DNA of 56,826 bases from a virus (taxonomy: Duplodnaviria; Caudoviricetes), in IMG/VR virus record IMGVR_UViG_3300036770_001578, positions 1-56,826 of that record. One strand, 5' to 3'. The notes under the pieces are model-generated. The model did not search any database and was not told where the DNA came from. It saw only the letters and a list, made by a program, of their open reading frames with translations. Within the stretch, counting starts at the first letter, position 1. Each line of letters opens with the position of its first letter. Below, piece by piece: positions 426 to 37,130 of this stretch. Both the position numbers and the translations under genes were made by a program.

Positions 426-450
426 ACGCATTAGGACATAAAATACTGCC

Positions 451-2432: not shown

Positions 2433-3404
2433 ATGAGATACAACCACTTTTCAATGCTACCCGAAGAGGCGTTTAAACCTCGTAACGGTAGGTATGGCAT
2501 GACCTTGGAGGGTGGGTCCTCTTCACCCCCTCCACCTACCCAGACCTCTCAGATAAGCATTCCTGAGTATGCACAGCCTTACATGGAGCGTCTGCTCGGT
2601 AAGGCAGAGGCTGCGACTGAAGCCCCTCGTCAAATTTATGGTGGGGAAAGGTTTGCTGGTGCTACCCCTCAACAAGCTCAAGCAAGATTCGAAGCCTCTC
2701 AGATGCAAACCCCAGGTCAATTTGGGGTTGGAACGGGGATGGTTGGTGCAGGTGGACTAAGGAGTCTTGCGTCTGGGCAAGAATACATGGGGATGGCAAC
2801 AGACCCTTCTGCTACAGCGGCATTTATGTCTCCTTACATGCAAAATGTCGTTGACATACAAAAGCAAGCTGCGATTCGTGACGCACAAAAGACACAACTA
2901 GGTGCAAATTTAGGTGCAGTCCGTCAGGGTACTTATGGTGGTGCTAGGCAGTTGCTGGCTCAGACCGAACGTGAGCGAGCTTTAGGTGAACAGTTGGGTG
3001 ATATTCAAGCTCGTGGATTGCAGTCGGCGTTTGATCAGGCCAGACAGGCACAGCAGTTTGGTGCTGAACTTGGATTAAAAGGCACCGGGCAAGCAATAGA
3101 GGCTGGCAGAGGATTAGCTCAGATCGGTCAGGCAGAACAGGCGGCTGAACTTGAGAGACTAAAGGCACAGGAAGCTTTTGGAAGTCTGACTCAGGCAGAC
3201 CGTCAAAAAATGCTAGACCTTCAGTACCAGGACTTCATGGCGCAACAGCAGTTCCCATTTACTCAGTTGAGTTACATGGGTGACATTCTTCGTGGCATTC
3301 CCGGAAGATCTGTCTACGAGTATCAGCAACAGCCTAGTGGGTTGCAGCAGATGGTAGGTCCTGGACTGTTAGGTCTCGGGATGTACAGGGAGTTTATGCG
3401 ATGA
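2433..3404 (+). CDS. DNA ejection / pilot-type virion protein
   Basis: Gln/Ala/Gly-rich helical protein with MSPYMQNVVD and GTYGGARQ segments; N-terminal leader ending TLEGG; in ejection cluster. Confidence 0.65.
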   Translation: MRYNHFSMLPEEAFKPRNGRYGMTLEGGSSSPPPPTQTSQISIPEYAQPYMERLLGKAEAATEAPRQIYGGERFAGATPQQAQARFEASQMQTPGQFGVGTGMVGAGGLRSLASGQEYMGMATDPSATAAFMSPYMQNVVDIQKQAAIRDAQKTQLGANLGAVRQGTYGGARQLLAQTERERALGEQLGDIQARGLQSAFDQARQAQQFGAELGLKGTGQAIEAGRGLAQIGQAEQAAELERLKAQEAFGSLTQADRQKMLDLQYQDFMAQQQFPFTQLSYMGDILRGIPGRSVYEYQQQPSGLQQMVGPGLLGLGMYREFMR

Positions 3405-4881: not shown

Positions 4882-7800
4882 ATGGCCTATAGTCTTACCC
4901 TGCCCAACGGGGCTGTTATCAACAATATTCCCGATAACATTTCCCGTAATCAGGCTATGGACATGCTGAAGGAGAAGATGCCTGATGCTTTTCCACAACC
5001 GCCTGGAGTGCTATCTCAACTTGTAAGGTCTCCAATAGAGATTGGAAAAGGTTTTATTAGAGGGCTAACAACAGACCCATTGTCTGGTATTAGTTCTTTG
5101 GCCTACACCGGCGCTAGGGCTGCAGGGGCTGAACTGACGCCATTTGAACAAACAGCTTTTGGTCGTGGTCTAGGAGAAGCACAGACAGCGCTTGCTCCTA
5201 GCGACACCGGAATGATTACCCAACTCGCTGGTGGCTTAGGTTCCTTGGCTTCCTTTATCCCCGGCGGTCTTCTCAAGGGTGGTATCAGACTAGCCACTCT
5301 GGGAACTCAGGCCGCTGGTCTTGGTTCTGAAGAAGCTAGGGCACGTGCAGAACAGGCAAGACTAGAAGGTAAAGAGGTAACACCAGAGCAACAGTTTATT
5401 TCTCAAGTAGGTGGCACTGGCATAGGTCTTACTGAGCTAGCACCAGTCGCTAATTTGATTAGGCCTATTGAAGCTGTTCTTCGGGGAGTCAAGAGAAGCG
5501 ATGCAGATGCAATTGCACCTGGGCTCTTTAACAGCGCTAGAAGAATTCTGGAGACCGGTGGCATTGAAGCGTTCCAAGAAGGAATGGCTAACATCATGCA
5601 GGATCTGGTCCAAAAGGGTGTCTATGATCCCAACCTTGAGGTTGGTGAATCCGCTCTTGGTGATGCTGCTATGGGTGGTGCTGTCGGTTCTTTTGCACAG
5701 GGTGCCATTGAACTGGTAACTCGTGGGAAACGCCGTGATATCTATGAGCGTTTAAAGGCACAGGAACGTGAACAAGAACTCCAAGACAGACTTGCAAGGC
5801 TCCAGTCAGAAGAGCAAGAGCAAATCGCCAGAACGAAGGCAAACCTCGGGGTACCCGAAGAGACTCTACTGGCTCTTCCCGCCCCAGCCGCTCCGGTCAT
5901 TGATGCGCCAACGCAAGACCCGCTGGCAAACCCGCTCGGTAACTTCAGTATCGATGAACTCACCACAGGAATAAGCGACTTCATCAATGCCAAGAGAAAG
6001 AGGGATGGGCAGTCTATTCTTGACTCCTTCTCCATCGAGGACATTGCTGACGCAGGTGCCCCCCAGGCTGAGATCGATCGAATCATTGCCGGAAAGCTGT
6101 CCCAGCAGGGGGTCAATGTTGAGGAAGGGTTAGCTCAAAACCCTTCAGAGCAGGATGTCAGAAACCTTGCTGAATCCAAGGGAATCTCTACCGATACCCC
6201 TGGGTATAGGCACTTCCTCAGCAGAACCACAGGTGTCGAAGACTACGGCTCTATGAGCCCGATGCAGCGTCTGGCTGCGTTTACTTCTTTGCAAAATGTC
6301 GAGGAGGGCGGAATCCTCCCGCTGGGAACCAACGCAAAGCGGTTCACAGAGCAACAGTACGACAAGGTCAAAACAAGCATTCCTGACCTCTTTAAGGACT
6401 CAGATACCCTGAGTCCAACTAGTGTCGTTGAGAAAGTCAAGAAGATGACTGGCTTGAAGAGCGACCGTGACGCTCGTTCTCTTCTCGACACTGCCATCCG
6501 TAACGGGGAACTTTCGACTGCCGCTACCCCTGTCTATGAGGTCATCAAGGACGGCGTCATTCTCCGGAAGTACAACACCAGGAAAGCGGCGGCAGAGGCT
6601 GCTGATCGTTTAAACGCAACAATCAGAAACTCCACGGTCACAGAGTTCGCTCTTCCCGGAACCCTGAAGGAACTCCCAGGTGGGCCAGATATCCGGGCAG
6701 GAAGGTTTGAGGCGGGGGTAGAACCTGCCGGGTTTGATATTAAAGATGCTACCGGCAAGACCCTAGGTGGTGCTGCTACCCAAGCAGAGGCAGAGGCCAA
6801 AGCTACCCGGTTTGCTGCAACGCGACAAGGTGAGGCTAACCGTCTTCAGGAAGAGATCCAGAAGATCAAGGAGGGTGTTGCTGGAACCCAGCAGAGATTG
6901 GAGGCCATGGAGGCTACCGGTCAGGCTGGCACTGTCGGGTTTACCAAACTCCAGGCCGATGCGTTTGCTCAGGCTAAGGAAGCACAGCGGAAGATTGAGG
7001 AGCTATCAGCACAGCAGGCAGCACTTGCAGAGCCTCTCTCTATCAATTCAAAGGGCACTAGACCCGTCAGCAGGGAAGGCTACACCTTCTTTCAGGACGG
7101 ACAACCCAGGGGTACCTTCCCGACCAAAGAGGCCGCTGAAGAGGCTGCAATCCAGTCCTATGACGACTCTTTCCTAGAGAGGATCGCTAACAGTGGAGAC
7201 CAGCAGCGTGGACTGATGCCTAAGCGTCTGGCTGCTATGGCTAGAAATGAACTAGCCAGAAGGCGTGGAGAGCTACCTCAAGGGTTTGGGATTCAGTACA
7301 CAGGAACCCCGGAGGAGGCTGAAGCGAAGCTTTCTCAGGCTGGAGTCTTCACCGCCAAAACCCAGGAACAGATCCGAGAGCTTGAGAAGAAGCTTCTACC
7401 GGCTATGAAGAAGCTTGGGCTGGAGAATGTTGGTCTGAGGATCATCAAGGCCATAGAGAGCGGTCAGGGGTCTGCTGATGGCTTCTATGCCTCCAGACTC
7501 ATCACGATCGCCCTGGATGCTGTTGACCCAATGGGAACCCTGCGGCATGAGTCTATCCATGCCCTGAAAAACCTTGGTGCCTTTAAACCCAATGAGTGGA
7601 AAGTCCTGGAGAAGAAGGCCAAAGAGGAGTGGATCGACAGGTTCCTAAAGGACAGGTTTACTGCCCAAGGTGTTTCTCTCTTTGATGCCTATAAGGCTAT
7701 CTATGAGCAGGATAATGGGTCTCTTGCCGGGTTTGATGAATACATCACCGAAGAGGCTATTGCTGACGCTTTTAAGTACTTCAACCAGACCAAACCCCCT

Positions 7801-10800
7801 GCAGGCTTGATTGCTAACCTGATGTACCGTTTAAAACGGTTCTTCAGTGCCCTTGAGAATGCGTTTAAAGGCCTAGGGTTCCAGACCGCTGAGGATGTGT
7901 TTACACGCACCGAAGAAGGTAGATTGCAGGCTATCAGTCCTGCTACCCAATCTGGGGCTGGTAAGTTCGGCTTAAGAGCAGACCAGTCAGCCACCATGGA
8001 ATCTACTGGGGATAAAACTCCACTGAGCATAGATGGCATCAGGATCTATGAACGGGAGCTTCAAGGGCTTATTAAAAAGGTCGGTGACAGGATCGCTGGC
8101 ATGGACTCCACCAAGACCCTGGAGGATGTCCGTAAGGCCGTTAAGAAGCTTCAGAGCTATACCAAGCAGGGATTAGAAGGCAAGGAATGGTACGAGCGTT
8201 CTGCTCAGGCAGTCCTGGAGGCTTTCAATGGTGATCCAATTCTGGCAGAGAAGTTCTTCCAAGTAATTGCTATCACTTCCGCTAACACTGAGGTAGCAGC
8301 AAACTTCACCAAGGCTTCTAATGCATGGGAGCAATTTGCTACCGGTCGTCCCATCAAGGCTGGAACTAAACGGGAAAACGATGCAATTGATGACCTTCTG
8401 AACTTCGGTTTGGATTGGGACGGAAGAAAAACCAACACCTTCTATATCAACCTCATGGAAGCCATGGAGGGAACTGATACCGGAAGGTCTACGATTGATC
8501 TGCACATGTCTCGTATGCTGTTCGATCGGGACAGCCCAACTGATGCTCAATATCAGCTTGGTGAGAACATGGTTCGACTGCTTGCATCTAAGATAGGGAT
8601 ACCCGCTAGACAGGTGCAGGCCGCTTCTTGGGTTACCCAAAAAGCCAAGAAGATGTTTGATGATTACAGAGAGCGCGGCTTGAAGCGGAACATGTCCGAT
8701 GAAGAGCTACGCAATCATGCCTTCCAAAGAGCCCTTATGGACTATGCCCACTTGAGCAAGTCCAAGGGGTTCAGTCCCACCGTTACCCCAGAGCTTTTAG
8801 AACCCTCTGCGTCTAAACGGGCCAGAACTCAAGTTGTTACCGGGGAAGTTATTCCAACCACCAAAGGCTTTATGTCCCAGGTGGCAGAGCTTCCCATGAA
8901 TATCAAGGAGAAACTTACCAAGAACATCATGAATGAGTCTTTCATTCAGGACATTGGTAAGGCCCTGGGATTGACCAGCAAGATCCGAGTTGCCCAGGGA
9001 ACCGGTGGATATGACGGCGGTATCTCTCCGAATCTGATTGTCAGGCTTATCAATCCCGATCCTGCGGTAGCAGTTCAGGAAGCCAGAGACCTGTCGGATG
9101 CTATGAGCTATGTCTTCCAACAAGACGCAACTCCATTCTTCCGGGCAGATCCGGCATTGTTAGGTCAGGGACAGTTAGGCTATCGCTTCCGCTTTGGAAG
9201 GGCTGAACTGACGCCAACCCAGGAGCGTAAGATCTTTGCTGCTATGCGGGAAGAAGTAGGGAACGATGTTGGTTATTCCAAGACTAAGGATAACGACATT
9301 GTGGTTATCAATTACAGGGGTGAGGATGGCAATCCTTTCCTGACGGATGACAACAGTTTTGCTGACGCAATGAACAGGTTCCGCGAGAAGGCGGATCAGA
9401 TTGTTCCTATCGAAGATGCCAGTGTTTTTGGCGCTGAATCGGAGTACAGATACAATGAATGGAATGAACCCACTACTGGACAAAGTATTATCGATGGGCT
9501 TCAGGGCCGCAGACCAGAACGACCCAATCTATCAGGACAACTTACAGGTCTTCGTGACGCCTTCGTCAAGCAGGCTAGGTCTGCCGTCCGAGAATCCGGA
9601 GGGACTCCCAGATTCCAGCTTCGATCTTCAGAATTTGTCGGTGGACCCGGTCCAGATGGTGGCCTCGTTCTCGGAACAAAACAGCCTGGAGCAAAATCCT
9701 TCACAGGAATCCACTACGGAAAACAACAGGTAAACACCCTTGCTGGTTCCAGGTACGGGACTGGCATCAAAGGGCAGGAAGCAGCCCGTCTAGCAGAGTC
9801 TAAAGACCCTCGCATCAAGAAGCGGGTCTACTTCTACATCCCATTCCCGCAAGGCATGATGCCCCCGGTAGAAGCCGGGTTAGGGAATTATGTTTATCGT
9901 CAGAGGTTTGGAAATATCCTACCCCCAGGCGATGAGATGACGAGGCTGTATAACGCCTCTGAGGGCGACTACAACCGGTTTGAATCCAGCGTTATCGATG
10001 CCGGGTACGATGGCTATGCAGTCCCCAACATGGGGATGATGGTCATCATGAACCATGATGTCCCTGTTGATTACCTAGGTACTCGTCAAGAACTCAAAGG
10101 TACCGTTAACCTTCTTGGTAACCAGTACTCCCTAAGGGCTGTAAACACACCAGAGTTTAAACAGTGGTTCGGTAGCAGCACCATCACCAATCCTGATGGT
10201 TCACCCAAGGTCATGTATCACGGCACTGCCAGGGATATTGAAACCTTCAAACCTAAGCAGGCTAATGCAATCTTTGTAACTAACACTCCAAAGTTTGCCG
10301 GATTTTTTACGGATAATTCCGAAATCTTTATGGCAAAAGAACTTTACGCTTCGTTAAGCGATAAAGAAAAAGATTCAATTACTAGCAAAGCAAAAAAAAT
10401 TGCAAAAAAAGAAGGGACTAACATTGACGATGAGTTAATGAGTCTTTTAAGGGATCAGTTGCCTACTCGTGCAAACATCATGCCTTTGTATGTCCGGGCA
10501 GAGAAACCTTTTGATTACGAAAATCCGGATCATGTTTCTACAGTTCAAAATGCATTTAAGACTAGCACTTTTTATACTAACCTCACGAAAAACCAACGAC
10601 CATTTTATGACCGTATTTATGACCGATTAGAAGATGGTGATTGGTCGGATATAGAAAACTCATCGGTTCAAAAAATTATTCGTGATCTTGGGTTTGACTC
10701 TTTCTATGTCAGAGAGGGTTACCAAAAAAACCTTGCTGTCTACGATCCAAATCAAATCAAGTCTGCTGTTGGTAACTTCGGAGCCTTCTCTCGTACCAAT

Positions 10801-13800
10801 AACGACATCCGGTATTCGTTAGCACTGGCAGGTATCAACCCTCAGTCCTCTCTGGTTCCTGATGAGGGTGGTGACTCCCTTGGTCGTCTTGGAATGCAGC
10901 CACAAAAGCTTGGCGGCAGGCCTATCAATCTTCTGATCGGTACCCACAATGATCTGATCGATGAGCTTAAGAACGAGAAGATGTACCGCCCCGTTTCTTA
11001 TGGTGCTAACCATATCCTGAATCGTGTCTTGAATAACCCCAGGAGAGATCCAGGTGGTGCTCAAGAGCTTCTGGAAAGGATTGTCCGTAAGGCACAGCAG
11101 ATTGCTCGTAACTACAGCAGGGTCTACAAAGAGGGCAACAAGCTGATCTTCTTTGCTGGTAACGACAGTCTTATCACTATGGAAGATGGCTCTATCGTCA
11201 CCATGTACAGGCAGTTCGATCCAGAGCGTAAGTATGGGAATCCGATCTGGTTTGGCAGAGCGCCTGCTGTTACCGATTCCAAACCTCCCAAAGGGTTACC
11301 TGTTCGTGAACGGGATGGTCTTGTCTCTCCGAAAGATGTTGAGACCGCAGAGAAGGTCAAGCGCGTTTACACACCCATGGATGTGGAAGCGCTATCAGCA
11401 GCTTATGTGGAACCCAAGAAGGGAACCCTGGGGCTGAAGAAGGTCTCTGCTCTTGAACCCACTAGAAAAGAAGTACCTTCTCTCAACAATAAATTGTCTC
11501 TTCGTGTTTCGTACGCAAAGGTCAACAAGTTCTTTGATGACCAAGAAAAAATCCCTATGTCTGAAGACGTTGAAACCATTCGGGATAGTTGGATTGGCGG
11601 TGTTTCAGGGGTTGGAGAGAGAGACCTTGCCTACTACTTGAATCAAGTGAATGGTGGACCTCAGTACGTCCAGCAAGTCCAAAACTTGGTTCGTCGAGAT
11701 CTTGGCAATTCGTTTAAGGGCTACCGCTTAATGAGCCAGGAGGAAGTGGAAGAACTTCAGACTGGAGCGATGGGTTCACAACTAGCCTCTGTCAGCCTTG
11801 TTCCTGAGACTGCCCTTGCGCTTGCAAGCATCCCTCAGTACGCCAGAAGGCCAAAAGGTGATCTGGTAGTGGTAGAACTTGACCTAACACCAGAGCATGT
11901 CCAGATGGTTGGTCACCCTCCTGAGCGGGAACTTGTCATTGACTACGGGGTTGGATACAACCCAACCGCCATTGAACCAATGATCTCGCCTGTCAGATTC
12001 TCTTTGAGAGAATTTAGTCTTGATGATTTGCCACAAGACACTGATCGTGCTGTTTACACGCTACCTGCTGGAACCAAGTTGTACCACGGCTCCAACAAAG
12101 ACACTGCCGCTGAAATCAAAAAGGCTGGTCATGTTTTACTGGCTGCTCCTCCGTATAAATCAAGCGGTGGATACAACACAGAAGGCTACCTTGTTTGGTT
12201 TGGCGACAAAGAGACCGCAGATTTCTTTGCGACAGGTCCGGAAGGACAGGCTCGTGAAGATCAAAAAGAACCGGGAGAGGTTTTTGAAACAGTTACCGAT
12301 GAACCGCTAAAACTTATTCATTCAACCCAATACAAACTAGATGCTGATCAGGCAAAGAAAATAAATGATTTTTATGAGATGCCAGATTACAAATTATTTA
12401 AAGCGGGTGACTCACTTAGTTCAGTTAGTTGGAGAGTAACCTCAAATACCAATGCACTGAGAAAAGCAAAAAGTTACAGGGCCGAAGGCGCAGGAACACT
12501 GTACTCAGTCCTCAAGGACGTTGCACGACTTCTTGGGTTTGATGGTTACTACTACGACAATGGCATAGCACTTCCAGCAGAAAAAGGTATCTCGCTTGGT
12601 CTAACAGAGGCAGGTGAGTTTGTTGGGAAGCCAATGCAAAGGTTTTCTTTGCGCGAAAGCATTGACCCTACTGTCGTCAATGCTATCGATCGGACGACGA
12701 CTACCCGTAAAGAGGAGGGGTTTGGTGACCGGATGGCAGAGGCTATCTCTCCTACAGGGTTCACTAAGTTCCGTCAGGGGTTCATCAACAAGTACGAGAG
12801 GATTGCTCAGATCTCTAGGACGGTAGCCAAGAAGTTTGGTGACCAAGAGCTACTAGCAGACCAATCAGCGATCGCAGCGGCATTGATGTCTGACCGTGCA
12901 TCTGGGGTAGCAGCAGAAGCCTTCAAGAGAGGCATCCCGGTCTATGACAAGGGGTACACCTATGTCACCGACATGGAAGGCCAGCAGAAGGGCCTTATGC
13001 AGATCCTGATGCCATTGGCAGAGAGGGGAGATCCCTTCGTCTATCAGGCATTCCAGTTCTACGCCGCCTCCAAGAGAGGCAAAAGGCTGGATGCCGAAGG
13101 CCGCGAAAGACTCTTCACCCCAGATGACATGAAGAAGGCGGCATTGCTGGAGCGTGAGTTCCCTGAGTTCAAACAGGTCTTTGATGATTACCAGAAGTTC
13201 AACAAGGGTCTGGTGGATTACATGAAGGACACCGGTGTCATTGACGCTGAAATGGCTCGGAAGTGGACAGAGAACTGGGACTACATCCCCTTTTATCGTC
13301 AGCTTGACGGTGAGAGGACTGCAGGCCCGAACATCTTCCAGTCCATCGCGGGGGTAGCTCTGCCCAAGAAACTCAAGGGCGGAGAGGCTCCTCTGGCTGA
13401 CTTCCTTGAGACCATCACCAGAAACACCAGGGCGGCAATCGAGGCTGGCATGAAGAATGTGGCAGCTAACCGAGTCGTCCGTGACATGAAGCGTTTAAAC
13501 GATCCAGGCGGTACAGCGCCAATGATCGAGGAAATCAAGCCTGGACAAAGACTCGGACCTGATTCGATAACAGTCCGGGAGAATGGAAAGACCAAGAACT
13601 ACCGGGTAGCAGACCCTCTCTTGATCGAGTCCTTGAAGGGTTTAAATATCCCTCAGCTTCCGTTCCTGGAGGTTCTGGCAAAGCCTGCACAGGTCTTGCG
13701 TGAACTGGTAACCAAAGATCCTGGATTCATGATGGCTAACCTCCTGCGAGATTCCTTGCAGGCATGGGGTATTGGTAACCAGATATTCCCTGTGGTGGAT

Positions 13801-15183
13801 ACCTTCAAGCAGTACGCGAAGGTTCTGGCAAACATGTCCCCTGAGGCCCAGAAGCTTATGAGGGCTGGTATCGGTACCGGTTACGAGTTTAAGGGAGATG
13901 TTCAGGCCACAACCGAAGAGTTTGCAAGACAGCTTCGGATAGCGGCAGGACAAAGAACCGGAGGAGAAAAGGCAGCACTTCCGCTAACCAAGGCATGGGA
14001 TCTCTTAGACCAAGCCTCTACAGCTTCTGACTTAGCTACCCGTGCTGAGGTGTTTAAACGCACCATGGAGGAAACCAACGGGAACGAGGCTGAAGCTGTC
14101 TTCCAAGCTATGGAGGTGATGAACTTCTCCCGTAAGGGCTCTAACCCAATCATCCAGATTGCTGCTGCCGCTATACCGTTCCTAAACGCCCGTATTCAGG
14201 GCTTGGACGTCCTCTACCGGGCTGGGACAGGGCAACTATCAGCCCGTAACGCTGCAGCCCGTCAGAAGGCCTTCTTCGTTCGTGGTATGACCATGATGGC
14301 TCTCTCCTCTCTGTACTGGATGCTGGCATCTGAGACAGAGGAATGGCAGACCGCAGAGCAAGAGACCAGAGATAACAACTGGATCATCGGGCCTGTCAGG
14401 ATTCCTATCCCGTTTGAACTGGGCGTGATCTTCAAGGTAGCACCTGAGAGAATCCTGGAGTACACCTTCGGGGATGACACGACCAAGGACCTGAAGATGT
14501 CCTTTGTCAGGAACCTCACCTCGACCTTGGCTGTGAACCCCATTCCTCAGGCAATCCTGCCGATCGTTGAGAATGTTGCTAACTACAGCTTCTTTACCGG
14601 TCAACCCATTGTCGGAAGGGGGCTTGAGGATGTCTCTAAACCTTTCCAGGTCAATACCGGAACCTCCCTCTTTGCTTCTAAGGCAGGGGAGTCTTTGGGT
14701 CTCTCCCCGGTTCAGATTGATAACCTGATTCGTGGATACACAGGAACTCTGGGAGGTTATGCTGTCATGGCCTTAGATGCTGTCATGAGAGGCCAGGGAG
14801 ATCCAACCAAGGCCACCATGGGGGCTGAACAGCTACCGGTAATAAAGCGGTTCTTTGCTTCCCCTGAAAGCACCGGAACTGTGACCCAGTTCTATGAACT
14901 GAAGAACAAGCTTGATGAGACCACCAGGACAATCAACTTCCTGGAAAGGGCCGGTAAGTTTGACCAGATGGCGGAGTACATGAAGGAGAACGCCATGATG
15001 GTCTCCATGACCCCCTACATTCGAACCCTGGAGAAAGAGATGAATATGCTCAGGGATACCAAGAGGGTGGTTAACAATTCCCAGATGGAGCCTGATCAGA
15101 AGCGGGAGGTTCTGGATGCGATTCGTTCTGCTGAGGTGAACCTGACTCGGAATATCCAATCAGTAAGGAAGCTTGTTGATTAG
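4882..15183 (+). CDS. large polyvalent virion protein (zincin, HhH-like, ART-like x4, PBECR-like, LPD38-like)
   Basis: 3433 aa; HESIH zincin (7546-7560); WYE...AITS...TIDLHMSR...QVQAASWV; FKQWFG...PKVMYHGT...YDPNQIKSA; YGANHI; LYHGS; C-terminal RDNNWII...RIPIPFELGVIFK. Confidence 0.85.
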   Translation: MAYSLTLPNGAVINNIPDNISRNQAMDMLKEKMPDAFPQPPGVLSQLVRSPIEIGKGFIRGLTTDPLSGISSLAYTGARAAGAELTPFEQTAFGRGLGEAQTALAPSDTGMITQLAGGLGSLASFIPGGLLKGGIRLATLGTQAAGLGSEEARARAEQARLEGKEVTPEQQFISQVGGTGIGLTELAPVANLIRPIEAVLRGVKRSDADAIAPGLFNSARRILETGGIEAFQEGMANIMQDLVQKGVYDPNLEVGESALGDAAMGGAVGSFAQGAIELVTRGKRRDIYERLKAQEREQELQDRLARLQSEEQEQIARTKANLGVPEETLLALPAPAAPVIDAPTQDPLANPLGNFSIDELTTGISDFINAKRKRDGQSILDSFSIEDIADAGAPQAEIDRIIAGKLSQQGVNVEEGLAQNPSEQDVRNLAESKGISTDTPGYRHFLSRTTGVEDYGSMSPMQRLAAFTSLQNVEEGGILPLGTNAKRFTEQQYDKVKTSIPDLFKDSDTLSPTSVVEKVKKMTGLKSDRDARSLLDTAIRNGELSTAATPVYEVIKDGVILRKYNTRKAAAEAADRLNATIRNSTVTEFALPGTLKELPGGPDIRAGRFEAGVEPAGFDIKDATGKTLGGAATQAEAEAKATRFAATRQGEANRLQEEIQKIKEGVAGTQQRLEAMEATGQAGTVGFTKLQADAFAQAKEAQRKIEELSAQQAALAEPLSINSKGTRPVSREGYTFFQDGQPRGTFPTKEAAEEAAIQSYDDSFLERIANSGDQQRGLMPKRLAAMARNELARRRGELPQGFGIQYTGTPEEAEAKLSQAGVFTAKTQEQIRELEKKLLPAMKKLGLENVGLRIIKAIESGQGSADGFYASRLITIALDAVDPMGTLRHESIHALKNLGAFKPNEWKVLEKKAKEEWIDRFLKDRFTAQGVSLFDAYKAIYEQDNGSLAGFDEYITEEAIADAFKYFNQTKPPAGLIANLMYRLKRFFSALENAFKGLGFQTAEDVFTRTEEGRLQAISPATQSGAGKFGLRADQSATMESTGDKTPLSIDGIRIYERELQGLIKKVGDRIAGMDSTKTLEDVRKAVKKLQSYTKQGLEGKEWYERSAQAVLEAFNGDPILAEKFFQVIAITSANTEVAANFTKASNAWEQFATGRPIKAGTKRENDAIDDLLNFGLDWDGRKTNTFYINLMEAMEGTDTGRSTIDLHMSRMLFDRDSPTDAQYQLGENMVRLLASKIGIPARQVQAASWVTQKAKKMFDDYRERGLKRNMSDEELRNHAFQRALMDYAHLSKSKGFSPTVTPELLEPSASKRARTQVVTGEVIPTTKGFMSQVAELPMNIKEKLTKNIMNESFIQDIGKALGLTSKIRVAQGTGGYDGGISPNLIVRLINPDPAVAVQEARDLSDAMSYVFQQDATPFFRADPALLGQGQLGYRFRFGRAELTPTQERKIFAAMREEVGNDVGYSKTKDNDIVVINYRGEDGNPFLTDDNSFADAMNRFREKADQIVPIEDASVFGAESEYRYNEWNEPTTGQSIIDGLQGRRPERPNLSGQLTGLRDAFVKQARSAVRESGGTPRFQLRSSEFVGGPGPDGGLVLGTKQPGAKSFTGIHYGKQQVNTLAGSRYGTGIKGQEAARLAESKDPRIKKRVYFYIPFPQGMMPPVEAGLGNYVYRQRFGNILPPGDEMTRLYNASEGDYNRFESSVIDAGYDGYAVPNMGMMVIMNHDVPVDYLGTRQELKGTVNLLGNQYSLRAVNTPEFKQWFGSSTITNPDGSPKVMYHGTARDIETFKPKQANAIFVTNTPKFAGFFTDNSEIFMAKELYASLSDKEKDSITSKAKKIAKKEGTNIDDELMSLLRDQLPTRANIMPLYVRAEKPFDYENPDHVSTVQNAFKTSTFYTNLTKNQRPFYDRIYDRLEDGDWSDIENSSVQKIIRDLGFDSFYVREGYQKNLAVYDPNQIKSAVGNFGAFSRTNNDIRYSLALAGINPQSSLVPDEGGDSLGRLGMQPQKLGGRPINLLIGTHNDLIDELKNEKMYRPVSYGANHILNRVLNNPRRDPGGAQELLERIVRKAQQIARNYSRVYKEGNKLIFFAGNDSLITMEDGSIVTMYRQFDPERKYGNPIWFGRAPAVTDSKPPKGLPVRERDGLVSPKDVETAEKVKRVYTPMDVEALSAAYVEPKKGTLGLKKVSALEPTRKEVPSLNNKLSLRVSYAKVNKFFDDQEKIPMSEDVETIRDSWIGGVSGVGERDLAYYLNQVNGGPQYVQQVQNLVRRDLGNSFKGYRLMSQEEVEELQTGAMGSQLASVSLVPETALALASIPQYARRPKGDLVVVELDLTPEHVQMVGHPPERELVIDYGVGYNPTAIEPMISPVRFSLREFSLDDLPQDTDRAVYTLPAGTKLYHGSNKDTAAEIKKAGHVLLAAPPYKSSGGYNTEGYLVWFGDKETADFFATGPEGQAREDQKEPGEVFETVTDEPLKLIHSTQYKLDADQAKKINDFYEMPDYKLFKAGDSLSSVSWRVTSNTNALRKAKSYRAEGAGTLYSVLKDVARLLGFDGYYYDNGIALPAEKGISLGLTEAGEFVGKPMQRFSLRESIDPTVVNAIDRTTTTRKEEGFGDRMAEAISPTGFTKFRQGFINKYERIAQISRTVAKKFGDQELLADQSAIAAALMSDRASGVAAEAFKRGIPVYDKGYTYVTDMEGQQKGLMQILMPLAERGDPFVYQAFQFYAASKRGKRLDAEGRERLFTPDDMKKAALLEREFPEFKQVFDDYQKFNKGLVDYMKDTGVIDAEMARKWTENWDYIPFYRQLDGERTAGPNIFQSIAGVALPKKLKGGEAPLADFLETITRNTRAAIEAGMKNVAANRVVRDMKRLNDPGGTAPMIEEIKPGQRLGPDSITVRENGKTKNYRVADPLLIESLKGLNIPQLPFLEVLAKPAQVLRELVTKDPGFMMANLLRDSLQAWGIGNQIFPVVDTFKQYAKVLANMSPEAQKLMRAGIGTGYEFKGDVQATTEEFARQLRIAAGQRTGGEKAALPLTKAWDLLDQASTASDLATRAEVFKRTMEETNGNEAEAVFQAMEVMNFSRKGSNPIIQIAAAAIPFLNARIQGLDVLYRAGTGQLSARNAAARQKAFFVRGMTMMALSSLYWMLASETEEWQTAEQETRDNNWIIGPVRIPIPFELGVIFKVAPERILEYTFGDDTTKDLKMSFVRNLTSTLAVNPIPQAILPIVENVANYSFFTGQPIVGRGLEDVSKPFQVNTGTSLFASKAGESLGLSPVQIDNLIRGYTGTLGGYAVMALDAVMRGQGDPTKATMGAEQLPVIKRFFASPESTGTVTQFYELKNKLDETTRTINFLERAGKFDQMAEYMKENAMMVSMTPYIRTLEKEMNMLRDTKRVVNNSQMEPDQKREVLDAIRSAEVNLTRNIQSVRKLVD

Positions 15184-32418: not shown

Positions 32419-32645
32419 GCTGCCTCCTGGGTTTCACGTTTAATTGCATTGATAGCATCTCGCTTGCCGCCATTGCCACTAACACGATTGGTAATGGCGT
32501 AGCCGTCACCTTGCGGTTCGCATTGGGTTGCCTCAAACGAGTAGTAGTACCGAAAACCGTCCATCTTGTTGCCAAGCCGGGATCGGTAAATCGTCACCGA
32601 CCAGTTTTCATGGACGAAATGCGCCTCACCGCGAAAGAAATTCAT
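32415..32645 (-). CDS. hypothetical protein
   Basis: Start reassigned to ATG 32645 (GGAGG RBS, ATGA overlap). Confidence 0.6.
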   Translation of the reverse strand: MNFFRGEAHFVHENWSVTIYRSRLGNKMDGFRYYYSFEATQCEPQGDGYAITNRVSGNGGKRDAINAIKRETQEAA

Positions 32646-32926
32646 GCTGCCTCCTGATCTTCTTGCTGCTCCTTGTTGAGTTGCTCCAGCCTCTCGGCAA
32701 CCAGGGCAAACACCTGGGAGACGGCCTGCGCCACTTCCACCTGGGTTGCCCCAGGTTTCCAGCCGCCGCAACCGTAGTTCATGCTGATGTCCCGCACCCT
32801 GCCCCTGTAAAGCCGCACGTTAATAACCGCAACTTCGTCCCAGTGGGTCTGGGGGCTAACGAAACGGTGATGCATAATCCCCGATCCAGTCGGGTCAATA
32901 CTGCGAACGATGTTTTCTTGAATCAT
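32642..32926 (-). CDS. hypothetical protein directly downstream of hammerhead 1
   Basis: 94 aa with AGGAGG RBS. Confidence 0.65.
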   Translation of the reverse strand: MIQENIVRSIDPTGSGIMHHRFVSPQTHWDEVAVINVRLYRGRVRDISMNYGCGGWKPGATQVEVAQAVSQVFALVAERLEQLNKEQQEDQEAA

Positions 32927-32945
32927 GGTAGAGCCTCCTGTGGTT

Positions 32946-32995
32946 GTCTGAGACCCCCGAAGGGGTTTCGGCTATTGAAGCCTCGTCAGTCAGAC
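32946..32995 (-). ncRNA. type I hammerhead ribozyme
   Basis: GUCUGA-CUGACGA-GGCU(ucaau)AGCC-GAAA-CCCC(uucg)GGGG-UC/UCAGAC; full core and three intact stems. Confidence 0.92.
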
Positions 32996-33193
32996 TGCTT
33001 TGGGTTCACCCCCAGTGCATTTCAAAAGATCGGAGAGAGGAACCATGATGGACTCATAACCTCCGCAATAAATCGATGCACAAGCCGAATGCCCATGCAC
33101 CGTCTCTGGATGGATGCAAACGACAAAACCAGCGATGCGCCGGAATGCACCCGGTTTTGTTCGTACCTTGTCGCCTACTTGAATCTCGTTCAT
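32990..33193 (-). CDS. hypothetical SH3/KOW-like small protein
   Basis: IQVGDKVRTK...GFVVCI; stop codon lies in hammerhead stem I. Confidence 0.6.
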   Translation of the reverse strand: MNEIQVGDKVRTKPGAFRRIAGFVVCIHPETVHGHSACASIYCGGYESIMVPLSDLLKCTGGEPKAV

Positions 33194-33300
33194 ACAGCCC
33201 CCTTCCGGTGTTTTTGTTTACGGGAATACTTGGTGCGAACGGTATGCCTCCCGGCACCGCAAGAGCGGGAGTGCTTCGCTACGAAATTACGCTGCTTCAT
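33190..33300 (-). CDS. 36-aa basic peptide (not in ORF track)
   Basis: MKQRNFVAKHSRSCGAGRHTVRTKYSRKQKHRKGAV; GGAGG RBS; ATGA overlap with next gene. Confidence 0.65.
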   Translation of the reverse strand: MKQRNFVAKHSRSCGAGRHTVRTKYSRKQKHRKGAV

Positions 33301-33302
33301 GG

Positions 33303-33377
33303 TCAAACCTCCATTAATAGAACGATGCAGATAACTGCTATGTAAAAAGCGACAGCAATCAAAAGAATGTCCATCAT
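33303..33377 (-). CDS. 24-aa membrane peptide
   Basis: MMDILLIAVAFYIAVICIVLLMEV; AGGAGG RBS. Confidence 0.55.
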   Translation of the reverse strand: MMDILLIAVAFYIAVICIVLLMEV

Positions 33378-33388
33378 TCTTGAGCCTC

Positions 33389-33460
33389 CTAAAGAAAGAA
33401 AAGAATCATGACCTTGGCAAAGGTCAGCCAACATACTGTTCCGAAAATGAATGCCTGCAT
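33389..33460 (-). CDS. 23-aa membrane peptide
   Basis: MQAFIFGTVCWLTFAKVMILFFL; GGGAGG RBS. Confidence 0.5.
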   Translation of the reverse strand: MQAFIFGTVCWLTFAKVMILFFL

Positions 33461-33475
33461 GGTGTTCCTCCCTGT

Positions 33476-33676
33476 TTAAACGATGAAGTCAGGATGGGTA
33501 TCAATCCCCAAAGAAGAGGCCAGTGCTAGCATCTCTTCCTGATCCTTCCTGCGTAGTGCTGCCCGGATTGCTGCGGATATGGATCGAGCCGCATATCCCA
33601 GAATGTCCTGGTTGCCGGGGTTGGATTCAACGAACTGTTTTGCGTATCCGCAGACTCTCTGCTGGTGCTTGGTCAT
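33476..33676 (-). CDS. first early-operon hypothetical protein
   Basis: 66 aa with AGGAG RBS immediately after hammerhead 2. Confidence 0.65.
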   Translation of the reverse strand: MTKHQQRVCGYAKQFVESNPGNQDILGYAARSISAAIRAALRRKDQEEMLALASSLGIDTHPDFIV

Positions 33677-33689
33677 AAAGTCTCCTGGT

Positions 33690-33739
33690 GGGTTTCGCCC
33701 TTATGGGCTCGTCAGTACCAGTTCTGCACTGGTAGACCC
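33690..33739 (-). ncRNA. type III hammerhead ribozyme
   Basis: GGG-UC/UACCAGU(gcaga)ACUGGUA-CUGACGA-GCCC(auaa)GGGC-GAAA-CCC. Confidence 0.9.
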
Positions 33740-33939
33740 GATTTTGTTCACTAGAGACACATGTCCCTGGTTGGCGGTATTCCCAACCGTTGGAGCCTTC
33801 CCCCAACCGAGCCTTTGTTTAAGCCCCCAAAGTCCAGAGGGCACCCCATTCAACGCTGGGGCACTGCGTCTTCGATTCTGTAGATCCCGGTAGGTAAGTG
33901 GTGATCAGGTGAATCGGTACTGCTTACTGCTTAGACCGA

Positions 33940-33968
33940 ATGTTAGTGCCAAAGTTTAAACGATGCAA
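33940..33968 (-). promoter_or_regulatory. early leftward sigma70 promoter
   Basis: TTGCAT-N17-TAACAT with GTTTAAAC in the spacer. Confidence 0.65.
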
Positions 33969-34001
33969 GCATATTGTCCCACTACCTTTGTCGGGTATTA
34001 C

Positions 34002-34014
34002 TAAGTCATTGATA
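34002..34014 (-). promoter_or_regulatory. IHF-site-like motif
   Basis: TATCAATGACTTA matches WATCAANNNNTTR upstream of the early promoter. Confidence 0.45.
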
Positions 34015-34284
34015 ACGCTAGCAATTAATTGTTGAGTATTTTCTGGGGTTATACCTGGACAGAGGGTTACAGAGGGGTTTCCGGGGATCTTTAGGGGTGT
34101 AAACGGGGAGAAGCCGAAGGCGAGCGGATTACTACATCTAGTACAGAACAGAGGCGATGAGTACTACCGCTAGTAATGAGCTAACAGCAGACAAGGGTTG
34201 ACGCAGTCCGTTTAAACGGTAACCATTCGGGCATTGACGATAGGGTTGCCTACCGTTATCACTACAAAGGAAGGAGACAGAGAA

Positions 34285-34905
34285 ATGGACAAGGTTTCAT
34301 TGATAGATGAACTGGACTCAGACACAAGCACCGAAGACCAGGACGATGCAAGCACCATCAGCGCGGGGCTAGGTATCAGCGAAGCGATGCGGAAGAAAGC
34401 CGCCCAAGTAAAACCACATCGAAGAAAAGATGGAAAAGAGTATGGTCATAAAGAGAGAAGACCAGGAAGACTAACAGAGAGACAGCAGCAGTTCGCAAGC
34501 CTTGTAGCTCAAGGGTTAGCACCCAAGGACGCATACAAGAAGGCATACAACCATAGAACAGACAATGAGGCATCAGCAGTCGCATCTGCCCACAAGCTAA
34601 TGCGGAATGAGAAGGTGGCTGCACTTATCGGCTCTGTCTTTGACACCATAAAAGAAAACATCATTGCCGATGCAGTGGCAACAAGGCGTCACGTCATGGA
34701 GCAACTGATCAAGCATGCAGAGGGCGCCAAGCATGAGAGTACCAAGCTCAAGGCCTTGGAACTGATGGGTAAGGCAGTCGGTATGTTCACTGACAGAGTG
34801 GAGCAAAAGGTCGAAGAGGTAAGCACAGAGCGGCTTAAGAAGGAACTGCAGTCAAGCCTCGCTCTGTTAGACAACGTCAGACCTATTGGCAAACGCACTG
34901 CCTGA
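34285..34905 (+). CDS. terS: terminase small subunit
   Basis: LTERQQQFA...DAYKKAY...AHKLMRNEKV...KLKALELMGKAVGMFTDRVE; AAGGAG RBS before ATG 34285. Confidence 0.8.
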   Translation: MDKVSLIDELDSDTSTEDQDDASTISAGLGISEAMRKKAAQVKPHRRKDGKEYGHKERRPGRLTERQQQFASLVAQGLAPKDAYKKAYNHRTDNEASAVASAHKLMRNEKVAALIGSVFDTIKENIIADAVATRRHVMEQLIKHAEGAKHESTKLKALELMGKAVGMFTDRVEQKVEEVSTERLKKELQSSLALLDNVRPIGKRTA

Positions 34906-35052
34906 GTTAGGCACTGCATGGCCTGGAACCCGCATCCAGCCTGAGGCCCCCGGTACCACCCCCCACCGGGGGGCACCCCCCTAAACGCCACGCCTGCCCC
35001 CTCCTGCCCTATAGCTGTAATCCCCACATCCGATTTCCATCCCTACTTACCA

Positions 35053-35100
35053 CTGTCTATCCATACACCTGTCTATCTTTACATATGTATGTTTATACAG
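35053..35100. promoter_or_regulatory. three abutting SOS-box-like 16-mers
   Basis: CTGTCTATCCATACAC, CTGTCTATCTTTACAT, ATGTATGTTTATACAG; each has 1 mismatch to CTGT-N8-ACAG. Confidence 0.6.
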
Positions 35101-35332
35101 AAGGGTATCAATTCGTACTGAGTTTTCCGACAGCCAGAAAGAACAGGGAATTTTGCGTCCGCACCGTCCGCTTCGTCCTTTTGTCGTTTAAACGACAGAA
35201 GTAGGGTTCCATCGTCTCCGCCAAAGATAACGCCAGAACTAGCTCTTAAGGCGGCTTGTTCGTTTACATACCATCCAGCATATCGTTAGATCTTTTGTAC
35301 CCCCCTACCCCCTTCGCAAAAAGAAGGGGGGG

Positions 35333-35360
35333 TTGTTTAAACATACAGTAGTTGTAGAAT
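35333..35360 (+). promoter_or_regulatory. putative promoter overlapped by SOS-box-like site
   Basis: TTGTTT-N16-TAGAAT; TTGTTTAAACATACAG at 35333-35348 contains GTTTAAAC. Confidence 0.5.
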
Positions 35361-35388
35361 GCGAGCGATATTCGCTTGGAGTCCCACG

Positions 35389-35628
35389 ATGCTATTCAAA
35401 ATATCTAAGCCTCAACAGGAAGTTTATGAGTTTATTAGAGCCTTCATGAAGATCCATGGCTTCCCTCCGACTTACGACGAAATGGAGGAAGCATTGAAGA
35501 AAAGCAGAACGACTATCAATGGACACGTGAAGAGACTGAGAGCCAAAGGATTGTTATCAATCAAGGCTGATGCTGCTAGGGGTATTAGGTTGATTGATAG
35601 GTCTGCTAAGGCTGTGGATCGACTTTGA
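35389..35628 (+). CDS. LexA N-terminal winged-HTH protein, no peptidase domain
   Basis: ISKPQQEVYEFI...HGFPPTYDEM...TINGHVKRLRAKGLL...ARGIRL; GGAG RBS before ATG 35389. Confidence 0.85.
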   Translation: MLFKISKPQQEVYEFIRAFMKIHGFPPTYDEMEEALKKSRTTINGHVKRLRAKGLLSIKADAARGIRLIDRSAKAVDRL

Positions 35629-37130
35629 GCGAACTGTTAACCAGAGAAGAACTGGAAAAATATTCAGTTCTTTTAGAGAACATTCCTGCTAACTCACCAC
35701 AGGCGGAGAAGGTTTGGAAGTTACTGAAGGCCCATAAGAGGGCCTTGTGTAGGGAAGGGTTTCTACCGTTTGTGCAGGAGGTCTGGCCTGCCTTTATCGG
35801 TGGTAAACACCACAAGATCATGGCAGATGCCTTTGAGAGGGTTGCCAGAGGGGAGCTAAAGAGGTTAATCATCAATATGCCTCCCCGCCACACGAAGAGT
35901 GAGTTTGCTTCCTATCTCTTTCCGGCATGGTTTCTGGGGTTATACCCAGAGAAGAAGATCATTCAGACTGCCCACACGGCAGAGCTAGCGGTAGGGTTTG
36001 GTAGGAAGGTTAGGAACCTGGTTGGTTCTTCTGATTATTCGCCCATCTTTCCGACCCGGCTTTCAGCCGATTCAAAAGCCGCCGGGAGGTGGAACACAAA
36101 CAAGGGCGGGGATTACTTTGCTATCGGGGTAGGTGGTGCTGTTACCGGTAAGGGTGCGGATCTTTTGATTATTGACGACCCGCACTCAGAACAAGAAGCT
36201 ATGCTCGGTAACCCTACGGTCTATGACAGGGTCTATGAATGGTATTCCTCAGGTCCCAGACAACGACTGCAGCCTGGAGGATCAATAGTCATCGTTATGA
36301 CCAGATGGTCAAAGAGAGACTTAACAGGACAGGTGATTAGCAATTCCGTTGCCAGGGACGGAGATCAGTGGGAAGTAATTGAATTGCCAGCAATACTTCC
36401 CTCAGGAAGACCCCTTTGGCCTGAGTTCTGGAAGCAGTCTGAACTGGAAGCCATTAAGGCTGAGATCCCGGTAGGGAAGTGGGAGGCACAGTATCAGCAG
36501 AACCCCACCTCAGAAGAGGGAGCGATCGTTAAGAGGGATATGTGGAGGATCTGGGAGAAAGATGACCCACCTTCTTGTGACTACATCATCCAGTCCTGGG
36601 ACACCGCTTTTGAAAAGCACAACAGGGCAGACTTCTCCGCCTGCACCACCTGGGGGATCTTCTACAAAGAGAATGAGGAAGGGCTTGAGATCGCCAACAT
36701 CATCCTTTTGGACGCCTTTAAGGAAAGAATGGAGTTCCCTGACCTTAAGAGAACCGCCATGGAGATGTACAAGGAATGGAACCCAGACACCCTCCTTGTC
36801 GAGAAAAAAGCCGCTGGGGCTCCCTTGATCTATGAAATGCGGAAGATGGGGATTCCTATGTCTGAATATACACCCTCAAAAGGTTCAGATAAGATAGCCC
36901 GTGTAAACGCTATATCAGACCTTTTTGCCTCCGGTCTGGTCTGGTGCCCCAATAAACGATGGGCGGAGGAAGTTATTGAAGAAGTTGCGAGCTTTCCCAA
37001 CGGAGACCATGACGACCTTGTGGACTCAACCAGTCAAGCCCTACTGCGGTTTCGACAGGGAGGCTTTATCCGAATCCCGTCAGACGAACCAGAAAATTAT
37101 GTTCGTCGTAAACGACCGAGGTACTACTAA
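35625..37130 (+). CDS. terL: terminase large subunit
   Basis: INMPPRHTKS, LLIIDDP, QSWDTA, FPNGDHDDLVDS. Confidence 0.95.
   Translation: MSELLTREELEKYSVLLENIPANSPQAEKVWKLLKAHKRALCREGFLPFVQEVWPAFIGGKHHKIMADAFERVARGELKRLIINMPPRHTKSEFASYLFPAWFLGLYPEKKIIQTAHTAELAVGFGRKVRNLVGSSDYSPIFPTRLSADSKAAGRWNTNKGGDYFAIGVGGAVTGKGADLLIIDDPHSEQEAMLGNPTVYDRVYEWYSSGPRQRLQPGGSIVIVMTRWSKRDLTGQVISNSVARDGDQWEVIELPAILPSGRPLWPEFWKQSELEAIKAEIPVGKWEAQYQQNPTSEEGAIVKRDMWRIWEKDDPPSCDYIIQSWDTAFEKHNRADFSACTTWGIFYKENEEGLEIANIILLDAFKERMEFPDLKRTAMEMYKEWNPDTLLVEKKAAGAPLIYEMRKMGIPMSEYTPSKGSDKIARVNAISDLFASGLVWCPNKRWAEEVIEEVASFPNGDHDDLVDSTSQALLRFRQGGFIRIPSDEPENYVRRKRPRYY

Follow-up and report, generated by a model that had tools for sequence, protein, structure and literature searches.

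A type III hammerhead ribozyme between a conserved structured leader and a variable first gene in a phage operon

We wanted to look at the surroundings of a putative self-cleaving ribozyme in a 56,826-nt stretch of phage DNA (hereafter the window), taken from the IMG/VR virus record IMGVR_UViG_3300036770_001578, which is 92% complete. On the plus strand, genes for the small terminase, the large terminase and an SU10-like portal run rightward. The first of them, terS (34234..34905, likely ATG at 34287), was identified by its matches to phrog_51 (E 5.6e-16) and Pfam Terminase_2. From the 610-nt divergent intergenic region next to it, a second operon runs leftward on the minus strand, and it is this operon that carries the ribozyme; it also encodes a DUF7417 protein, a phrog_6361 protein, an AAA ATPase of the CbbQ/NorQ type and VWA/CobT-like proteins. 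The same divergent layout is present in L120, one of the orthologous contigs described below. The initial annotation had called the first gene of the operon early, a label that could not be upheld, the operon being simply divergent from terS. Elsewhere in the record, genes for an integrase, an Erf-like protein, an exonuclease and a primase-helicase were found. A 3433-codon ORF (4882..15183, plus strand), which follows a homolog of a DNA-ejection protein (2433..3404), has its only matches among PHROGs without assigned function and probably encodes a very large internal virion or ejection protein.

A candidate promoter of the leftward operon lies at 33968..33940 (minus strand), with TTGCAT at 33968..33963, TAACAT at 33945..33940 and a 17-nt spacer containing the sequence GTTTAAAC. 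In the ortholog alignment, TTGCRT-N17-TAMAMT stands at the equivalent place in all three lineages (window, L120 and L121-L125). A sigma-70 consensus scan of 32500..34500 gave no site, and TTGCAT-N17-TAACAT does not pass it. With this one candidate promoter, a transcription start near 33933 is plausible, and the leader would then be about 200 nt long. The spacer sequence GTTTAAAC is a palindromic octamer found 25 times in the 56,826 nt as compared with about 0.87 copies expected; its positions include 33474, 33954, 34210, 35186 and 35335, in coding and non-coding DNA and in both gene orientations, and the copy in the candidate promoter is at the same place in L121-L125. This octamer could be a protein-binding, methylation or promoter element.

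The presumed leader ends in a type III hammerhead ribozyme at 33739..33690 (minus strand), recognized by reading of the sequence, by its fold, by comparison with Rfam and by covariation. Its elements follow one another in the order stem III 5' strand, cut site, stem I hairpin, CUGANGA, stem II hairpin, GAAA and stem III 3' strand, so that the open ends are at stem III while stems I and II are capped by loops, which is the type III topology. Stem III is formed by four base pairs, GGGU with ACCC (33739-33736/33693-33690), including the A15.1-U16.1 pair (A33693-U33736), and it is followed by C17 at 33735, which places the predicted cut at 33735/33734. Then come the seven pairs of stem I, UACCAGU with ACUGGUA (33734-33728/33722-33716), closed by the 5-nt loop GCAGA (33727-33723), the core stretch C3-A9, CUGACGA (33715-33709), the four pairs of stem II, GCCC with GGGC (33708-33705/33700-33697; first pair G10.1-C11.1), closed by the 4-nt loop AUAA (33704-33701), and G12A13A14 as GAA (33696-33694). 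The conserved core is thus complete (CUGACGA, GAA, A15.1-U16.1 and C as H17), and all of these positions are invariant in the orthologs. The core-adjacent pairs U33734-A33716 (N1.1-N2.1) and G33708-C33697 (N10.1-N11.1) are intact as well, a rule used in the Methods of PMC3088659. By eye, no obvious pseudoknot was detected between the loops GCAGA and AUAA, the place where in this class a tertiary contact of loops I and II allows rapid cleavage at cellular Mg2+. The minimum free energy (MFE) fold of 33742..33687 is exactly this three-way junction (-20.4 kcal/mol, z = -3.06), and none of 200 shuffled sequences folded as well. These results indicate that 33739..33690 is, as far as can be read from its letters, a genuine and canonical type III hammerhead with an intact core and predicted self-cleavage, in agreement with both the class and the cut site initially proposed.

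Scanning against Rfam at the gathering threshold gave no match, since the element scores 34.8 bits with RF00008 (Hammerhead_3), under the gathering score of 48.5; this cut-off is a threshold for automated annotation and no defining feature of the hammerhead class. The match is full-length (model positions 1-54), with E-values of 6.4e-5 in a 4-kb scan, 9e-4 in a scan of the whole window with all 4227 families and 2.2e-7 with RF00008 alone. All core positions and stems I and II are aligned with the model, whereas stem III, for which the model expects about 7 bp, has 4 bp in the window. The deficit in score is therefore explained by the three outer pairs of the model that are missing from this short stem. 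A chance or decayed motif devoid of activity could nevertheless be argued from the sub-threshold score. For a control, a strict hammerhead descriptor (core plus stems of at least 4, 3 and 3 pairs) was run on both strands of dinucleotide-shuffled windows. Only 0.057 matches per window are expected by chance against the perfect core found here, and 300 shuffled windows gave a single match with at least 15 stem pairs. In the real window there are two matches, one of 15 and one of 16 stem pairs; they share the minus strand and are separated by 744 nt. A chance origin of the type III motif is thus unlikely.

Orthologs were recovered in two ways. L120-L122, which are JGI metagenome contigs, were found by a leader-plus-ribozyme pattern, and L123-L125, which are IMG/VR contigs, by a ribozyme pattern permitting one extra core nucleotide. 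By BLAST, these six contigs are about 87% identical to the window over 33869..33674, and both flanks have diverged. Their stem I exists in three versions, UACCAGU/ACUGGUA in the window, UGCUGGU/ACCAGCA in L120 and UGUCGGU/ACCGACA in L121-L125, so that four of the seven pairs are altered on both sides (RNAalifold). Contigs from two further metagenomes match the leader up to 33734 and then continue with yet another compensated stem I. All of L120-L125 carry an extra nucleotide, A or U, between A9 and G10.1 that is absent in the window. In the hammerhead of a chrysanthemum viroid, A and U were tolerated at this insertion site while C and G were detrimental (PMC3705267), which places the insertions of the phage orthologs among the tolerated variants. 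The initial annotation had also proposed synteny in related phages as a check, and the order leader, ribozyme and Shine-Dalgarno sequence (SD) is kept in all six orthologous contigs, with 13-16 nt from the ribozyme end to the ATG and 3-6 nt to the SD.

A wider family was assembled from two pattern scans of IMG/VR, one with fixed core and stem III and the other with fixed stem I and free stem III, which returned 67 and 45 contigs and, together, 42 unique type III sequences. Many of them have the same stem I as the window, several contigs carry two to five such ribozymes, and a stem III of 3-6 bp is usual. The covariance model built from this family, R1, gives the window element 68.8 bits. In an alignment of 86 rows (51 distinct) fitted to the model, fetched by patterns that fix the core and, for most, stem III, and with many rows closely related, 96.9% of the cells are paired and double changes occur in 12 of the 15 pairs. 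The covariation score is 0.601, compared with 0.137 for shuffled alignments, and none of 500 shuffles scored as high. No rows were removed from this alignment; three weak ones were kept, one of them being the type I region of the window described below, a false match to R1. The stems are thus maintained by compensatory changes both in the orthologs and in the wider family. In 52 of 55 distinct contexts, the 30 nt that follow the ribozyme contain the start of an ORF of 25 codons or more (median distance 20 nt), and an SD usually lies between ribozyme and ORF; in a stricter rescan an ORF start follows the ribozyme in 48 of 49 contexts (median 19 nt). In most of the family members from IMG/VR (L049-L115), the ribozyme is preceded at 3-10 nt by a GC-rich hairpin whose loop often contains the stop codon of the upstream gene. 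Since the hairpin holds this stop codon, the intergenic space consists in full of hairpin, ribozyme and SD, and after a cleavage the upstream RNA would be left with the GC hairpin as a cap at its 3' end.

The distribution of the element is narrow. The DNA itself occurs in nine metagenome studies, from fresh-water, subsurface or landfill habitats. The large terminase is 58-59% identical to those of phage 023Pt_psg01, Pelagibacter phage HTVC027P and phage DSL-LC04, and model R1 detected no ribozyme in these three closest named phages. No type III hammerhead was found at the equivalent place in any of 41 terS-related IMG/VR loci. It is therefore dispensable in this phage group. Three of these loci (L011, L012 and L020), all without a type III element, contain one or two type I hammerheads antisense to terS as in the window; those of L011 are at 448..499 and 1322..1371 (minus strand). 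Among deposited phages, neither 32500..35500 (megablast) nor the leader plus ribozyme (blastn) had a match. In bacterial genome representatives, the leader-plus-ribozyme and ribozyme-only patterns each gave no match, and no host was identified. The absence from most related phages would also suit a chance or decayed motif, but the compensatory changes in orthologs and the family score speak against it; this reading appears close to refuted by the covariation, and we consider it extremely improbable.

Downstream of the ribozyme, the transcript would continue with ACC, the SD AGGAGA (33686..33681), CUUU and the ATG of the first gene (33676..33674). The SD begins 3 nt and the ATG 13 nt after the ribozyme, so the short distance to the ribosome-binding site noticed at the outset was confirmed by reading the minus strand. 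The first gene (33476..33676, minus strand) encodes a 66-aa protein without a Pfam or PHROG match and without relatives in IMG/VR, and behaves as a swappable cassette. Orthologous cassettes of leader, ribozyme and SD precede four other, unrelated small proteins of 79, 63, 82 and 67 aa, for which no known family was found either. In one metagenome contig, 250 other letters stand in place of 33476..33682, meaning that exactly the first gene is replaced. The interval from the first gene to the DUF7230 gene contains two very short hydrophobic ORFs (33460..33389 and 33377..33303, minus strand; 23 and 24 codons), both preceded by an SD of their own, and 33402..33476 is conserved where the first gene is swapped.

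The second descriptor match is a type I hammerhead at 32995..32946 (minus strand), with a predicted cut at 32952/32951, recognized by sequence reading and covariation. It starts 744 nt after the start of the type III element and consists of stem I GUCUGA/UCAGAC, the core CUGACGA, stem II GGCU/AGCC and a stem III with a UUCG loop. All 60 cells are paired in a comparison of five related copies, and compensatory changes occur in 7 of the 12 pairs tested. In Rfam it is weakly matched by RF03152 (20.2 bits, E 5.3), and RF00163 and RF02276 had no match on the whole record. Its topology and stems being different, the two hammerheads are not duplicates of one another, as had been stated from the beginning. 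Both lie on the minus strand and bracket five small ORFs, which corresponds to the clustered hammerheads of PMC3088659. One of these ORFs encodes a basic 36-aa protein of the DUF7230 family (33300..33190, minus strand; Pfam PF23876, 28.0 bits with a cut-off of 27), a peptide that is conserved in L120-L125. The region around it, 33210..33331, has a contig depth far above that of its neighbours in four metagenomes and is therefore shared by many other phages. The TGA stop codon (32992..32990) of a 67-aa ORF (33193..32990, minus strand) falls within stem I of the type I element, on its 5' strand, and the same arrangement is seen in L120. Since a ribosome terminating at this ORF would cover the type I core, translation and type I cleavage may be coupled. 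Directly after the type I ribozyme, AGGAGG (32939..32934) and an ATG follow within 20 nt; the 94-aa ORF that begins there (32926..32642, minus strand) has no family in PHROGs or Pfam. Both ribozymes occur in the same order in L120. In contrast, no type I partner was found within 4.6 kb downstream in L123 or within 4 kb in L122. A middle fragment capped at both ends was thus rejected as a general design, the partner being present only in the window and L120.

We then considered the leader itself. Its presumed 5' part (33933..33870, minus strand) is variable and not conserved in relatives according to the ortholog alignment. Conservation begins abruptly at 33869 and reaches the ribozyme, defining a block of about 130 nt (33869..33740, minus strand; BLAST identity and RNAalifold) with five local hairpins: 33862-33857/33848-33843, 33842-33837/33828-33823, 33807-33801/33795-33789, 33788-33783/33774-33769 and 33768-33763/33758-33753. 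Two leader pairs show compensatory changes in the orthologs (RNAalifold). A G-U pair, which would be an A-C mismatch on the opposite strand, occurs in four of the five hairpins and points to the minus-strand RNA only. The structured leader of about 200 nt that had been expected was therefore recovered in structure and conservation for its last 130 nt or so, and solely for these. A coding leader was rejected. A 32-codon ORF (33849..33751) is open in relatives but has no SD, and its differing codons are non-synonymous in 6 of 6 and 6 of 7 cases, so that RNA structure was preferred. A 20-nt direct repeat, at 33901..33882 and 36482..36463 (both minus strand; 19 of 20 identical, E 0.002 in a small search), has its first copy in the variable part of the leader and its second antisense to the large terminase gene, and may be due to chance.

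Could this leader be the purpose of the cut? The hammerhead would then give a five-hairpin non-coding RNA a precise 3' end carrying a cyclic phosphate, and this RNA would act on its own, for instance by binding protein or RNA. Several observations point that way. The last 130 nt or so are as conserved as the ribozyme, while the flanks and the downstream gene vary, and to the covarying pairs and strand-specific G-U pairs is added the constant association of leader and ribozyme: an nhmmer profile of the leader matches only the six contigs that also carry the ribozyme, and a 28-mer taken from the leader only retrieved three IMG/VR contigs, all three with the ribozyme (a two-anchor leader pattern had no match in IMG/VR). 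Moreover, 33698..33941 has a contig depth far above that of its neighbours in one metagenome. However, no Rfam family matches the leader in the 4-kb and whole-window scans, and a search of the window for targets by complementarity and repeats gave nothing convincing, the best being a single 20-nt match on the same strand. The covariation is thin with only three distinct lineages, and the SD, fixed at 3-6 nt past the ribozyme, suggests that the downstream message is at least equally important. Taken together, we regard a leader released for its own sake as rather unlikely.

A different role for the leader would be to gate the ribozyme, the leader or a factor bound to it deciding whether the hammerhead folds and hence whether the operon is expressed. 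In the consensus fold, the leader segment AGGCUCG pairs with CGGGUCU, which covers the 5' strand of stem III and the cut site, and the segment CGCAGU pairs with the CUGA box. Both leader segments are invariant in all relatives, the competing pairs reach a probability of about 0.6-0.77 in three of four sequences, and enforcing the hammerhead costs 3-4 kcal/mol of stability. When the whole leader is folded by a thermodynamic model, which ignores tertiary contacts, the 4-bp stem III has a probability of only about 0.01 in three of the four sequences. Yet shuffled leaders behaved alike: with the window and L121 leaders, the median probability of stem III was 0.003-0.009 after shuffling compared with 0.007-0.009 for the real leaders, and 89 of 150 and 76 of 150 shuffles, respectively, were at or below the real value. 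The low probability of stem III thus says little either way, since shuffled leaders are equally low and tertiary contacts are ignored, and the competing fold, no better than with shuffled leaders, was rejected as evidence of gating. In addition, the real leader of L120 favours the hammerhead (0.42), and the long-range pairs never vary and so provide no covariation. The initial annotation had suggested that the short stem III makes cleavage conditional. This was not borne out by the competing fold, nor by the length of the stem, 3-6 bp being ordinary in the family. Finally, the SD is unsequestered in the MFE fold. Pairing of the leader motif GUCUCU with the SD, considered by eye, was likewise rejected, as the MFE and centroid folds leave the SD free. 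Gating by the leader is therefore an unlikely explanation.

What we favour is a simpler arrangement, in which a working hammerhead ends the conserved leader, strips it from the message and leaves an mRNA with a 5'-OH paired in a hairpin; we hold this to be probable. What the data establish is a conserved and covarying motif that keeps a constant position ahead of the SD while the gene behind it is swapped; that the RNA is cut, where transcription begins and how mRNA stability and translation respond are inferred. The ribozyme would form the last part of the conserved 5' leader of the leftward operon, which points away from the terminase genes. During transcription it would fold and cut between C33735 and U33734, constitutively and co-transcriptionally. 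The leader, some 200 nt if transcription starts near 33933 and with five hairpins in its last 130 nt or so, would be freed as a separate RNA ending in GGGUC with a 2',3'-cyclic phosphate. The mRNA would retain the body of the ribozyme, with the 5'-OH on U33734, paired as the first base of the 7-bp stem I, followed by the stem II hairpin, a short single-stranded linker with the SD and the ATG 13 nt past the ribozyme. A hairpin-protected 5'-OH end of the 3' product had been proposed in the initial annotation, and it follows from hammerhead chemistry and topology. Whatever the sequence upstream and whichever gene is swapped in, the structured 5' end of the message would always be the same and its ribosome site would be exposed. 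In the window, the type I hammerhead 744 nt further on would cut again just before the next SD, and the 783-nt RNA between the two cuts would begin with the type III body and finish with the type I body.

Decay of the RNase E type is slowed when an RNA starts with a hairpin and its 5' end is not phosphorylated, and a 5' end paired in a hairpin is a poor entry for 5'-end-dependent nucleases. The opposite outcome can also be envisaged, in which cleavage lowers expression, the 5'-OH marking the mRNA for decay and so keeping a potentially harmful first gene at a low level. The first genes are indeed small, often swapped and without known family, and glmS provides a precedent: after cleavage by this ribozyme, the mRNA is degraded by cellular RNases (review PMC6765202), and a 5'-OH end need therefore not stabilise an mRNA. 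But the new 5' end of the phage message would be fully paired in a 7-bp hairpin, the engineered equivalent of the element raised expression in E. coli (PMC6206723), and a constitutive ribozyme would be a wasteful way of achieving what a weaker promoter or SD could do. We find this reading distinctly improbable. An insulator-like role of the 5' end is favoured because the position of the SD is fixed across the family, because the cassette is indifferent to the gene downstream and because there is the precedent of RiboJ, of which the phage element would be the natural counterpart.

A more speculative extension, which we put forward tentatively and rate as possible rather than likely, is that leader, ribozyme and SD make up a portable expression cassette at a hotspot of gene swapping. 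The 130-nt leader with its five hairpins would then be a new class of structured phage RNA, either a stand-alone regulatory RNA or a sensor timing the ribozyme and the variable first gene, which possibly serves counter-defence. The interest of the locus is moderate and lies chiefly in the conserved leader and the swapped first genes. The roles of ribozymes in bacteria, hammerheads of bacteria and phages included, are still largely elusive according to a 2019 review (PMC6765202), and the locus offers a compact test system, with one leader, a canonical ribozyme and an SD placed before five natural first genes and a second topology downstream. It could show whether such ribozymes stabilise, insulate or time phage messages, and whether nature preceded synthetic biology in the design of RiboJ.

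In the literature searched, neither this leader nor the spacing of hairpin, ribozyme and SD is described, and the supplements of PMC3088659 may list the sequence family. Clustered phage hammerheads and a hammerhead before a first early gene are already published. Perreault et al. (2011, PMC3088659) described clustered type I, II and III hammerheads flanking genes in prophages, some of which cleave in vitro and in E. coli, and proposed that they process long transcripts into shorter mRNAs. Like these clusters, the window combines hammerheads of mixed topology in one transcription unit around short blocks of variable genes; unlike them, its first ribozyme ends a structured leader that opens the operon rather than lying between genes. 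The same source reports HHphage of the haloviruses HF1 and HF2. In an early polycistronic transcript of these viruses, HHphage lies 13 nt upstream of the first ORF's start codon, and the 5' end of the transcript was mapped at most 3 nt from the HHphage cut. The 13-nt spacing is shared with the window. In contrast, HHphage is a core variant with an atypical insertion in an archaeal virus living at high salt, whereas the core of the window ribozyme follows the consensus and its source is DNA of bacterial phages from fresh water or the subsurface. The glmS leader is similar in being a self-cleaving ribozyme in a bacterial 5' UTR whose cut alters the fate of the downstream mRNA (PMC6765202); it differs by its dependence on a metabolite, its other fold class and its lowering of expression, and no ligand dependence is indicated for the window. 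The closest parallel to the reading that we favour is found in RiboJ, a type III hammerhead derived from sTRSV and followed by a hairpin before the ribosome-binding site, which in E. coli increased the amount of transcript about 2-fold and that of protein 2- to 10-fold (PMC6206723). In both cases a type III-derived hammerhead is placed between promoter or leader and ribosome-binding site. RiboJ discards its leader by cleavage, leaves a standardised 5' end bearing a hairpin and works whatever gene is downstream, as the phage element would. RiboJ is an engineered device with an extra hairpin of 23 nt behind the ribozyme, whereas the phage element is natural, with a 3-nt linker to the SD and a conserved structured leader upstream.
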